In this document: positions 6,247 through 28,056 of the stretch, one piece after another
How positions within the stretch are numbered: the first letter of the stretch is position 1
How the letters are laid out: every line of letters begins with the position of its first letter
Assembly: GCF_055900595.2 (NCBI RefSeq)
Contig: NZ_CM148325.1
Strand: one strand, 5' to 3'
DNA: 64,000 nucleotides
Notes under the pieces: model-generated
The model's database searches: none
What the model saw: the letters and a program-made list of their open reading frames with translations, nothing else
Told to the model about the DNA's origin: nothing
Position numbers and translations under genes: made by a program

Positions 6247-6309
6247 ACAATTGACTCGCGGGGAAATCGTTTACGGAGTCTTCATCCTGGCACTTTTTTA
6301 TGCCGCTGA

Positions 6310-24181: not shown

Positions 24182-26728
24182 TCACGAAAAATACTGCTGT
24201 AATAGCGGCGTGTCGTGATCCTGATTGGCAGGCGGCATGTTGCCGATAGATTTGGTGCGGAACGGAATCACCTGTTCACGACCATCAACCTTCACAATTT
24301 GATAGAACTGCGGCAGGTTGAAGTTGATGAAGCTTGAGCCGTAGGTGAAACGGTCGTGCGAAGACGAGTAGAAGCGACTGACGTCACGCACCAGTTCCTC
24401 TTTGCTGCCTTCGCAGTGGTGATACACCTCAACCCGGTTGCTTTCGTCGAGAATGTAGATATTAAAGCCATTCTCGTCTTGCGTTTCTTCGAAGAAGAAC
24501 TGGATGATCCCTTCGCTGGCAAAGCCGTCCACCACCGCCGGTAATTTGACGTGATTGGTTTCAACCTGCACTGACAGGCCGTGCAGTTTGTTATGCGAAA
24601 TAGCGCCATAAAACTCGATGGCATTTTCCAGTTTCTGTACCGATACATTCAGGCGTTCGAAGAATAAGCCCCAAGTTTGACCAGAAACGCGCAGCGCCTT
24701 GAAGCGCCCGGTTTCCTGGCGGGTGCTGGAAAGACGCAGTTCAATGCACTCAGAAACCAGTTGCTGCACGCGAGTACGGATTAAGCCGCGCAGATGCTGG
24801 CTGTAGCAGAAGACTTCCACGCTATCTGGCGGTGCGGCGTCCTGATGCATTTTGCCGAGAATGGTTTTCAGGGCTTCGATCATCGACTGCTCGCCGTTGA
24901 AGTGCAGCGTACGCACTTCGTTCCACGAGTTGCGGTACAGCAGGTCAACGCTACCTACCAGGCAATTTTGGTTTTCGCCAAAGCTGAAGACGTCCAGCTT
25001 ACGGAAATCAAAATGCACCACCTGATTGCGGAACGCAGCTGTCGGGTCATATTCCAGGTTAACGATAATCGCCAGATGGCGAATTTCACACGGGCTGTAG
25101 AGCGCTTTTGGCGTCGGTGCAGGCAGGCGCAGCGGGAAATGGTGCGACACATCGGCGACCATCTCCTGCAACTTAGGCAAATCGACAATGCCGTTGCCTT
25201 TAATATACAAGCGGGTGCGCGAGGTCAGCAGGCCGTTAAACCATGCCCACGCCACCAGTTTATTCAGGTAACGGTTATATTCCAGCGGCTGATGGCTGAT
25301 GATCGACTCAATATTTGGCGCGCGGTTATACAGATACCAACCTGAACGGTTAGCCCGGCCCGGCGGCACATAAATAAAGGTCAGATTCGGTTCCGAGAGA
25401 TCGGGCGAAATCTGCGGGTTTACCAGCGTCACTTTACCTGGCAATGCTTCAAACGCGGCGTACAGTTTACGCGTCAGAACACCGATATCCTGTGGGCTGG
25501 CGGAGACGCTAAGGTTATTGCGACGCGCAAAGCGGATCAGATTACGGTAGCTCTGCATCATTGCATCGAGCAGCTCGTTGTGCGCCTCACGCACCTGATC
25601 AATCTTCCAGTTAGCGCGGTTATCGAGCATTGCAAGACGACCATCGTCCCATTCCCACTCTTTCACTAACTGGGTTAGCACTTCACGACGCCAGCCTACA
25701 CAGGCGCGTTCACGGCTGAGTTTTTCGCACACTTTTAAATAGAAGCAGCGACGCACTAAATCCAGACGGGTGAAATCTTCAATCGCCGTCAGGTATTCAG
25801 TAACACGCTCCAGCATCATGCAGTACGGATCGAGACCAAACGATACAATCTCGCCGTCGTGCAAACGCTGTTTGATATCTTTCGCCAGCAGACGTGGGTT
25901 CGGGTATTCCCAGGAATAGGCTTCCAGCAGCAGTGTTTTCAGTACCGCTTTGTATGGGGAATCGATACTCTTGTAGAGCTGCCAAAGGCTGGCACCAAAG
26001 TACTCTTCAGCAGAAAGCGAGCTTAAGCCACCGAGATCCAGCCATTCATTTGGCGTCAGCACGCCCTGCGCGTAAAGCGTCATCACATAGTCATCGTAAT
26101 GCTCTTCTTCGTCACACGGCACCATATTCCACAGAATACGCTTACCGGCGAGACGCACGGCGGTACGATAAAATTCGTCAAGCAGCAGTATATGCTGGGT
26201 GGAGCCACAATCTTCGCCCCCCAGGCTGCCGCTTTCATTATGACGGAAGCGATTTTCATCAATCAGGAAGAAGCTAACTTCCACGCCCAGCGAGGCGGCC
26301 CAGCTTTCCAGCAGGCTGCATTTACGTTGTAGTAACTGGCGCTCTTCGCTATCAAGCCAGGATTGATGACAGACCCAGATATCCAGGTCAGAGGAACAAC
26401 TTTGCCCTACGGACGAGGTGCTGCCCATGGTGTATACACCAGTAATTGGAAGCTCACCTTTCGGCGGATCCTGTACTGACATTCCACGATACAGTTCAAG
26501 CTCGTTCAGGTAGTGGCGTTGAGTTTCATCAGGCGTGTAAAGGCAAATGCCTTTGGGAACGTTACCATCAAGGTAACCCGGCATTAGCGGATGGTGATAG
26601 TGCAACAATGTCGGCAGTAGACTGTAGACCTGTTGGAATGCAGGCCCCATAGCAGCAAGCGCGCGATCCACGCGCAATTGATTTATGGCATCCAGTCTCT
26701 GTTTCAGAGTCTCAATATAGAGGTACAA
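24182..26728 (-). CDS. cyaA: Adenylate cyclase (class I)
   Basis: 848-aa [50 protein letters not shown]..., starting at a TTG (plus 'caa' at 26726-26728), consistent with the known UUG start of E. coli cyaA. Confidence 0.95.
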
Positions 26729-26879
26729 GACGTATCGCCTGATTTGCTACCCGTCATGACTGTGATTCCGCCAACATCAACGGTAACACGCGGCATTCGG
26801 GATATTTCGTATGTCAAAGGTAACCGTTACCACTTTTCGCGCCTGGTTTTTTTAGTTTCACGACGAAAAAATGGTCTAA

Positions 26880-26899
26880 AACGTGATCAATTTAACACC
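26880..26899. promoter_or_regulatory. Candidate CRP-cAMP site in the cyaA–hemC divergent promoter region
   Basis: AACGTGATCAATTTAACACC resembles the TGTGA-N6-TCACA consensus (GTGA-N6-TAACA). cyaA is known to be CRP-repressed, but the exact site was not verified. Confidence 0.4.
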
Positions 26900-27114
26900 T
26901 TGCTGATTGACCGTAAAGAAAGATGCGCTACATACAAGTGTAGCACCGTTTATTCTCTGTAAATTCCTTATTACGACGGCGTGAAACGCCTGTCAGGATC
27001 CACTGCCAGACCTCATTTTACGGTTTGCGCAGGCGTCTACGTTTCACCACAACACTGACATCGCTCTGGCAAGGATGTTAGGATGGACCACGGATGATAA
27101 TGACGGTAACAAGC

Positions 27115-28056
27115 ATGTTAGACAATGTTTTAAGAATTGCCACACGCCAAAGCCCACTTGCACTCTGGCAGGCACACTATGTCAAAGACAAGTTAATGGC
27201 GAGCCATCCGGGTCTGGTCGTTGAACTGGTACCGATGGTGACGCGCGGCGATGTGATTCTTGATACGCCGCTGGCGAAAGTAGGCGGAAAAGGTTTATTT
27301 GTTAAAGAGCTGGAAGTCGCGCTCCTGGAGAATCGCGCCGATATCGCCGTACATTCAATGAAAGATGTGCCGGTTGAATTCCCGCAAGGTCTGGGGCTGG
27401 TCACCATTTGCGAGCGTGAAGATCCTCGCGATGCCTTTGTGTCCAATAACTATGACAGTCTGGATGCGTTACCTGCAGGCAGTATCGTCGGGACGTCCAG
27501 TTTACGTCGCCAGTGCCAACTGGCTGAACGCCGCCCGGATCTGATTATCCGCTCCCTGCGCGGCAACGTCGGCACTCGCCTGAGCAAACTGGATAACGGC
27601 GAATACGATGCCATCATTCTTGCCGTAGCCGGACTAAAACGTTTAGGTCTGGAGTCACGCATTCGCGCCGCGTTGCCACCCGAGATTTCTCTTCCGGCGG
27701 TAGGACAAGGTGCGGTCGGTATTGAATGCCGCCTTAATGATACTCGCACTCGCGAGCTGCTTGCCGCGCTGAATCACCACGAAACTGCACTGCGTGTTAC
27801 CGCAGAACGCGCCATGAATACCCGTCTCGAAGGCGGATGTCAGGTGCCAATTGGTAGCTACGCCGAGCTTATTGATGGCGAAATCTGGCTGCGTGCGCTG
27901 GTCGGCGCGCCGGACGGTTCGCAGATTATTCGCGGTGAACGCCGCGGTGCGCCGCAAGATGCCGAACAAATGGGGATTTCGCTGGCAGAAGAGCTACTGA
28001 ATAACGGCGCGCGCGAGATCCTTGCTGAAGTCTATAACGGAGACGCCCCGGCATGA
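27115..28056 (+). CDS. hemC: Porphobilinogen deaminase (hydroxymethylbilane synthase)
   Basis: Track ORF trimmed to the ATG at 27115 ([27 protein letters not shown]..., 313 aa), the first gene of hemCDXY. Confidence 0.95.

Follow-up and report, generated by a model that had tools for sequence, protein, structure and literature searches.

A published GalR operator confined to Escherichia coli and E. albertii overlies a predicted leader stem-loop in the cyaA-hemC spacer

The 64-kb stretch of DNA analyzed here (the window) has E. coli as its source species: 651 bp around its cyaA-hemC region match an E. coli chromosome with 100% identity and recur in 5425 of 5426 complete E. coli genomes, where they are annotated as hemC and cyaA. 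The spacer between the two genes (26729 to 27114, 386 bp) corresponds to positions 3990767 to 3991152 of K-12 MG1655, from which it differs by two SNPs, both toward hemC; the cyaA promoter and leader are those of K-12 throughout. An earlier note on this DNA had described cyaA and hemC as divergent genes, an arrangement borne out by the list of open reading frames and by the RefSeq annotation of identical E. coli sequences, and the coordinates it gave for a TTG start, a CRP-like site, and a perfect palindrome all proved exact. For comparison across species, the cyaA 5′ region was taken from 80 species-representative Enterobacteriaceae genomes, and the 78 usable upstream regions were aligned. 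The genes and the features next to them are the following.

24182 to 26728, minus strand: cyaA coding sequence, 848 aa, class I adenylate cyclase (list of open reading frames; RefSeq annotation of identical E. coli sequences)
26726 to 26728, minus strand: cyaA start codon TTG (UUG) (list of open reading frames; annotation; orthologs)
26729 to 26745, minus strand: conserved translation-initiation region ATCAGGCGATAYGTC (columns at least 95% conserved)
27055 to 27084, plus strand: hemC promoter-like site CTGACA-18-TAGGAT, with a TG upstream (promoter scan; hexamers conserved across orthologs)
27115 to 27117, plus strand: annotated hemC ATG (list of open reading frames; an in-frame ATG lies upstream at 27094)

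The annotation, too, has cyaA start at the proposed TTG, as do all 78 of the aligned Enterobacteriaceae orthologs. An AGG Shine-Dalgarno-like element (26738 to 26740) lies inside ATCAGGCGATAYGTC. The yield of adenylate cyclase from UUG, GUG, and AUG starts has been given as 1:2:6 (as cited in PMC5499595), and cyaA is translated from a weak UUG codon. At the other end of the spacer, two in-frame ATGs (27094 and 27100) fall within the 21 nt 5′ of the annotated hemC start at 27115. Those 21 nt, in the block from 27092 to 27125, are at least 95% invariant in the 78 orthologs, exceeding the conservation of the first hemC codons, and the block also holds a promoter-like match in the cyaA sense (CTAACA-16-TATCAT, 27121 to 27094). 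A genomic-SELEX peak of FlhDC has been reported in the hemC/cyaA spacer (PMC9962212).

Between these flanks, the promoter region of cyaA carries three features.

26879 to 26900, no strand assigned: cAMP-CRP operator, the 22-mer AGGTGTTAAATTGATCACGTTT in the cyaA sense, with half-sites TGTTA and TCACG (conservation and literature)
26889 to 26917, minus strand: putative cyaA P2 core promoter, with −35 TTTACG (26912 to 26917), a 17-bp spacer, and −10 TAAATT (26889 to 26894) (sequence reading)
26925 to 26946, minus strand: 8-bp hairpin GUGCUACA-N6-UGUAGCGC, then AUCUUUCUUU, immediately 5′ of the P2 −35 (conservation; scan)

The stretch from 26945 to 26870, which spans P2 and the CRP site, is nearly invariant across the 78 orthologs. 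The putative P2 promoter matches the consensus at 8 of 12 positions, under the cutoff of 9 of 12 used in the scan, and its blocks are at least 95% conserved. From the position of the −10 element, we infer that transcription from P2 starts at about 26882 to 26884, and on this geometry the CRP site would cover both the −10 and +1. The footprint of Aiba 1985 reportedly agrees with a CRP site over these positions of cyaA. The 22-mer itself (AGGTGTTA[A/G]ATTGATCACGTTT) varies among the 78 orthologs at a single spacer base, both half-sites being invariant, a conservation that is confounded by the overlap of the 22-mer with the −10 and +1.

The CRP-like site of the earlier note (AACGTGATCAATTTAACACC, 26880 to 26899) turns out to be the known cAMP-CRP operator of cyaA, given its conservation and the literature: repression of cyaA by CRP has been described, with binding across the cyaA −10 in Yersinia pestis (PMC3050693), and cyaA is listed among known CRP targets (PMC3105977). 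Judged by its core, the site matches TGTGA-N6-TCACA at 8 of 10 bases (CGTGA...TAACA), and cores this good are not above chance in the window, where 13 with at most two mismatches were observed against 25 expected. A literature search with the CRP site string returned no match. A second core of this kind, with two mismatches (TGTGATTCCGCCAACA, 26761 to 26776) and situated where the leader is variable, is unconserved and probably a chance occurrence. Among repressing cAMP-CRP operators that lie across core promoters, a group that includes cyaA P2 and the downstream crp site, the present site is that very cyaA example, combining a good half-site (TCACG) with a weak one (TGTTA) over the −10/+1 and serving negative feedback on the cAMP-CRP system. 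Sequence and literature together indicate that cAMP-CRP represses P2 by binding these 22 bp across its −10 and start, a negative feedback on cAMP synthesis.

The hairpin directly upstream of P2 (26925 to 26946) is terminator-like on both strands and is kept in 38 of 40 unique orthologs, being more stable as cyaA-sense RNA in 27 of the 40. The Cedecea group has a different stem at this place with the pairing preserved (CTACCA/TGGTAG). Considered as a partner site for GalR, 110 bp upstream of the operator described next, the hairpin was rejected, the nearest stretch scoring 3.8 bits only.

Two overlapping features in the cyaA leader are at the center of this analysis.

26819 to 26831, no strand assigned: perfect 13-bp palindrome GGTAACCGTTACC, with 6-bp arms and a 1-bp center (sequence)
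26818 to 26833, no strand assigned: 16-bp GalR/GalS operator AGGTAACCGTTACCAC on the plus strand, GTGGTAACGGTTACCT in the cyaA sense (matrix score; published ChIP)

The palindrome GGTAACCGTTACC lies 90 nt upstream of the cyaA TTG. The earlier note could not assign it to any known regulator, a view refuted by the GalR site that ChIP-chip and ChIP-qPCR had located there in MG1655 (PMC5110547). The only paper that a full-text literature search with the palindrome retrieved was Qian et al. 2016, Front Mol Biosci 3:74 (PMC5110547). Of the 15 GalR-bound regions it reports from ChIP-chip, the fifth strongest (score, 12.4) peaks at probe 3991055, between hemC and cyaA. Qian et al. inferred the cyaA site to be GTGGTAACGGTTACC, termed it not previously described or predicted, and included cyaA among six regions confirmed by ChIP-qPCR with a second tag, using FLAG-tagged GalR (PMC5110547). 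The 15-mer GTGGTAACGGTTACC maps to K-12 positions 3991048 to 3991062, and its center, 3991055, is exactly the ChIP-chip peak probe. The palindrome is the core of the GalR operator AGGTAACCGTTACCAC, as motif score and published ChIP both attest, and this operator has been in print since 2016.

By the published rule, a GalR operator is a 16-bp hyphenated dyad (GTGNAANC.GNTTNCAC) that has CG at its center and in which positions 3, 5, 9, and 15 are critical on genetic grounds (PMC5110547). Read on the plus strand, AGGTAACCGTTACCAC has G3, A5, G9, A15, and the central CG, with mismatches only at positions 1, 2, and 12, and it shares 14 of 16 bases with galE OI (ATGTAACCGCTACCAC). The dyad axis of the operator falls between 26825 and 26826, half a base off the center of the palindrome, so the perfect 13-bp symmetry that drew attention to the site is a by-product and not a feature recognized by GalR.

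We scored the site with a GalR log-odds matrix derived from the 18 other sites in Table 3 of Qian et al. (PMC5110547), the cyaA site being left out. It scored 19.68 bits, within the range of the training sites (14.1 to 22.2), and was the top match in the 64-kb window, 4.6 bits clear of any other; the best score in any of 50 shuffles was 19.22. At 19.68 bits the exact tail probability is 9.1e-8 per position, so that 6.8e-5 matches would be expected for the spacer, 0.012 for the window, and 0.84 for a genome. The runner-up in the window (GGGAAATCGTTTACG, 6261 to 6275, plus strand, 15.07 bits) is at about chance level, with 0.44 expected per window. No second GalR-like site of at least 9 bits was found by matrix scan of the spacer, and a partner operator of the gal type, about 113 bp away on the opposite side of the promoter, was not found, the best other score between 26700 and 27130 being 5.1 bits once self-overlap was excluded. 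The nearest other candidate (10.99 bits, 26554 to 26568) lies inside cyaA, 265 bp away. With no partner operator detected in the spacer, the OE/OI looping arrangement of gal is not reproduced at this locus.

We then compared the palindrome and the operator across the 78 orthologs. As a conserved element the palindrome fails the alignment check proposed in the earlier note: it is replaced by GGTAACGGTTATTTTT in Citrobacter, GGTAACGGTTATC in Enterobacter, and GGTGACGGTTTTTG in Klebsiella, and its right arm is Escherichia specific, being lost in every genus outside Escherichia. Only E. coli and E. albertii reach the score of 19.68 bits. In Escherichia sp. E1V33 and in one divergent genome labeled E. 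coli (GPT24-02), the central CG is changed to CA and the score is 14.59 bits; in this lineage the change preserves the palindrome and destroys the center of the operator. All other genera score at most 12.4 bits with the GalR matrix, below every training site. The motif that is conserved family-wide is instead GGTRACGG (cyaA sense).

Within E. coli, the 61-nt segment holding the GalR site is identical in 5398 of 5424 genomes and the adjacent 61-nt leader segment in 5349 of 5424, while the unconserved spacer from 26950 to 27010 is identical in 2686 of 5426. The leader is constrained as a whole within the species, and the GalR site is not visibly more so than its neighbors. A 9-nt inverted repeat formed between the palindrome and positions 26779 to 26787 was rejected as a conserved feature, the second copy being confined to E. 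coli. This second copy of GGTAAC is replaced by GTTTCC in E. albertii and E1V33. It lies in the highly variable middle of the leader (26745 to 26805), which is missing from the leaders, about 100 nt long, of Kosakonia, Phytobacter, Cedecea, and Atlantibacter and which elsewhere consists of genus-specific hairpins, such as a CCGTAC...GTACGTCGG stem followed by a T-run in Klebsiella.

The conserved motif belongs to a predicted RNA structure.

26825 to 26883, minus strand: 5′-terminal stem-loop of the putative P2 leader RNA (minimum free energy, pair probabilities, orthologs, covariance model)

In E. coli this stem-loop pairs CGUU with AACG, ACCA with UGGU, and a U-run plus CGUC with GGCG plus an A-run, with pair probabilities of 0.84 to 1.0 in the closing helices. 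Its 3′ strand is made of the left arm and center of the palindrome. From the comparison across genera, we infer that GGTRACGG is conserved throughout the family because, as the 3′ strand, it closes this stem-loop. The fold of the whole E. coli leader is unremarkable (z, −0.44), and the 5′ stem-loop alone stands out. Single-sequence folds contain it in 57 to 63 of 64 unique orthologs, with a mean z of −2.2; positions 3 to 6, 11 to 13, and 15 to 24 of the 5′ arm pair with the 3′ arm in 51 to 63 of the 64, and several positions switch among U-A, G-C, and C-G from one ortholog to another.

A covariance model built from ten sequences found the stem-loop once in 73 of 77 sources, and in the resulting alignment 94.5% of cells were paired, compared with 39 to 67% in slid controls. 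Changes on both sides were seen in 7 of 17 pairs, a number that none of 500 shuffles attained (3.3 ± 1.1), in an alignment that was itself fitted to the structure model. The two outer helices, including GGUAACG, are nearly invariant and so lie beyond the reach of covariation support, their sole variation being A to G opposite U. When 38 leaders were simply aligned with MAFFT, RNAalifold predicted zero pairs, since the genera differ in bulges and in register by single bases. An Rfam scan of 26600 to 27250 (E ≤ 10) returned only a meaningless snoRNA match. As an intrinsic terminator or attenuator, the palindrome was rejected: the scan raised no flag, and the hairpin it could form has −1.8 kcal/mol and a probability of about zero.

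Altogether, the comparison suggests a stem-loop conserved over about 20 genera of Enterobacteriaceae, with compensatory changes in the inner helices and some support from covariation. Given the putative P2 start, it would stand at the 5′ terminus of the cyaA mRNA, and by analogy it may be a 5′ hairpin that stabilizes the message. We know of no published description of a cyaA 5′ stem-loop. The hairpin in the ompA 5′ UTR is reportedly such a 5′-terminal stabilizing stem-loop (Emory, Bouvet and Belasco 1992). Like hairpins of the ompA type, the cyaA stem-loop would begin 0 to 2 nt from the predicted 5′ end and is conserved in the family with compensatory changes; it differs in having a U/A-rich stem of moderate stability (mean z of −2.2) and a 5′ end that is read from the putative promoter.

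It is very likely that the spacer carries known control elements of cyaA and that the palindrome is one of them. The palindrome is the core of a 16-bp operator of the LacI family that binds GalR and presumably the isorepressor GalS as well. On the putative P2 start, this operator would be centered at about +58, within the transcribed leader. Its distribution suggests a recent, Escherichia-specific gain, in which about four substitutions would have turned the older GGTRACGG into a strong GalR site. Lacking a partner operator, the site is unlikely to support gal-like repression by looping, and a lone GalR dimer would act at most as a weak, galactose-relievable roadblock to RNA polymerase from P2 or as an architectural anchor of the type discussed by Qian et al. 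When galR was deleted, expression of the newly found targets changed little or not at all under standard conditions, and Qian et al. proposed for them condition-specific regulation or an architectural role (PMC5110547); a regulatory role at cyaA is therefore unproven. A literature search found no later work linking GalR to cyaA regulation. That the site has a measurable effect on cyaA, as a weak roadblock, we consider less likely than not.

The fullest form of this idea is that the operator is a functional innovation of Escherichia: once P2 is derepressed, GalR or GalS at about +58 would partly block cyaA until D-galactose is present, tying cAMP synthesis to galactose sensing, and the same bases would double as a DNA operator and as one strand of an mRNA stem. 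We regard this as unlikely. Alternatively, GalR may bind at a site that is inert, having arisen by drift atop a motif (GGTAACGG) conserved for RNA structure, a reading that we hold to be a serious one at somewhat under an even chance. It accords with the absence of any reported GalR-dependent change in expression (PMC5110547), with the limitation of the GalR site to E. coli and E. albertii and its degradation in a sister lineage, with an ancestral sequence that already scored 9 to 11 bits and required few substitutions, and with the roughly 0.84 sites of such strength that each genome would hold by chance. However, all of the approximately four Escherichia-specific substitutions approach the GalR consensus, and the offset of the site in the leader nearly equals that of galE OI. 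Furthermore, 13 of the 15 GalR-bound regions are intergenic and upstream of genes (PMC5110547), which speaks against a random placement of bound sites.

We also considered whether the relevant binder is another member of the LacI family, either GalS alone or an unrelated paralog. Operators of this family look alike, and GalS shares the operators of GalR. Furthermore, the LacI-family protein YcjW has a ChIP peak within the cyaA coding sequence, with cyaA mRNA unaffected (PMC6599011). However, the YcjW peak, being in the coding sequence, is away from the palindrome, and binding of GalS would supplement that of GalR without displacing it; we find a different binder improbable.

That the palindrome is an inverted repeat due to chance and binds no protein is very improbable. 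As a bare pattern it is indeed at chance level: the window contains 33 perfect palindromes of the 6-1-6 form, compared with 19 to 36 for each of the other spacer lengths from 0 to 10, about 0.2 would be expected in the spacer region for that spacer length, and the right arm is unconserved beyond Escherichia. Nevertheless, a GalR match of 19.68 bits is expected only 6.8e-5 times in the spacer, and the ChIP-chip peak centered on the site to the base, with its validation by qPCR, contradicts an explanation by chance. Least credible is a role for the palindrome as a small RNA hairpin of its own in the cyaA 5′ UTR (a pause, attenuator, or processing signal). The palindrome would be transcribed from P2 and could form a 5-bp stem with a 3-nt loop, but this hairpin has −1.8 kcal/mol and an ensemble probability of about zero, and imposing it on the fold is 6.2 kcal/mol less favorable than the long 5′ stem-loop with which it shares bases. 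Its right arm is unconserved, and neither the terminator scan nor Rfam picked it up.

The GalR operator in the cyaA leader can be set beside other GalR targets. Like galE OI, with which it shares 14 of 16 bases and the central CG, it lies downstream of the transcription start (+53.5 for OI; about +58 for cyaA on the putative start) and is bound by GalR in vivo. It differs in that OI acts together with OE (−60.5 and +53.5, 113 bp apart) through looping stabilized by HU, whereas cyaA has no detectable partner. With talB/yaaJ, ytfQ, purR, cytR, adiY, and pck it shares a common data set and motif and a mostly intergenic position upstream of genes (PMC5110547), and the other targets outside gal likewise gave no clear change in expression in a galR deletion (PMC5110547). 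Compared with these other targets, the cyaA site was missed by the in silico searches of Qian et al.; it has three mismatches at specified consensus positions and lies within a transcribed leader, where it overlaps an RNA stem.

For E. coli K-12, the literature already contains the UUG start, the site of CRP autoregulation, and the site bound by GalR, and their sequence is identical in the window. To these our comparison makes two modest additions, namely, that E. coli and E. albertii alone carry the GalR site, which was built from an older motif by few substitutions, and that this older motif appears to be part of a 5′-terminal cyaA stem-loop conserved across the Enterobacteriaceae. If GalR does modulate cyaA, the operator would bring a sugar-specific input into the cAMP feedback loop, and the locus would offer a clean case of a young transcription factor site layered over an RNA structural element.
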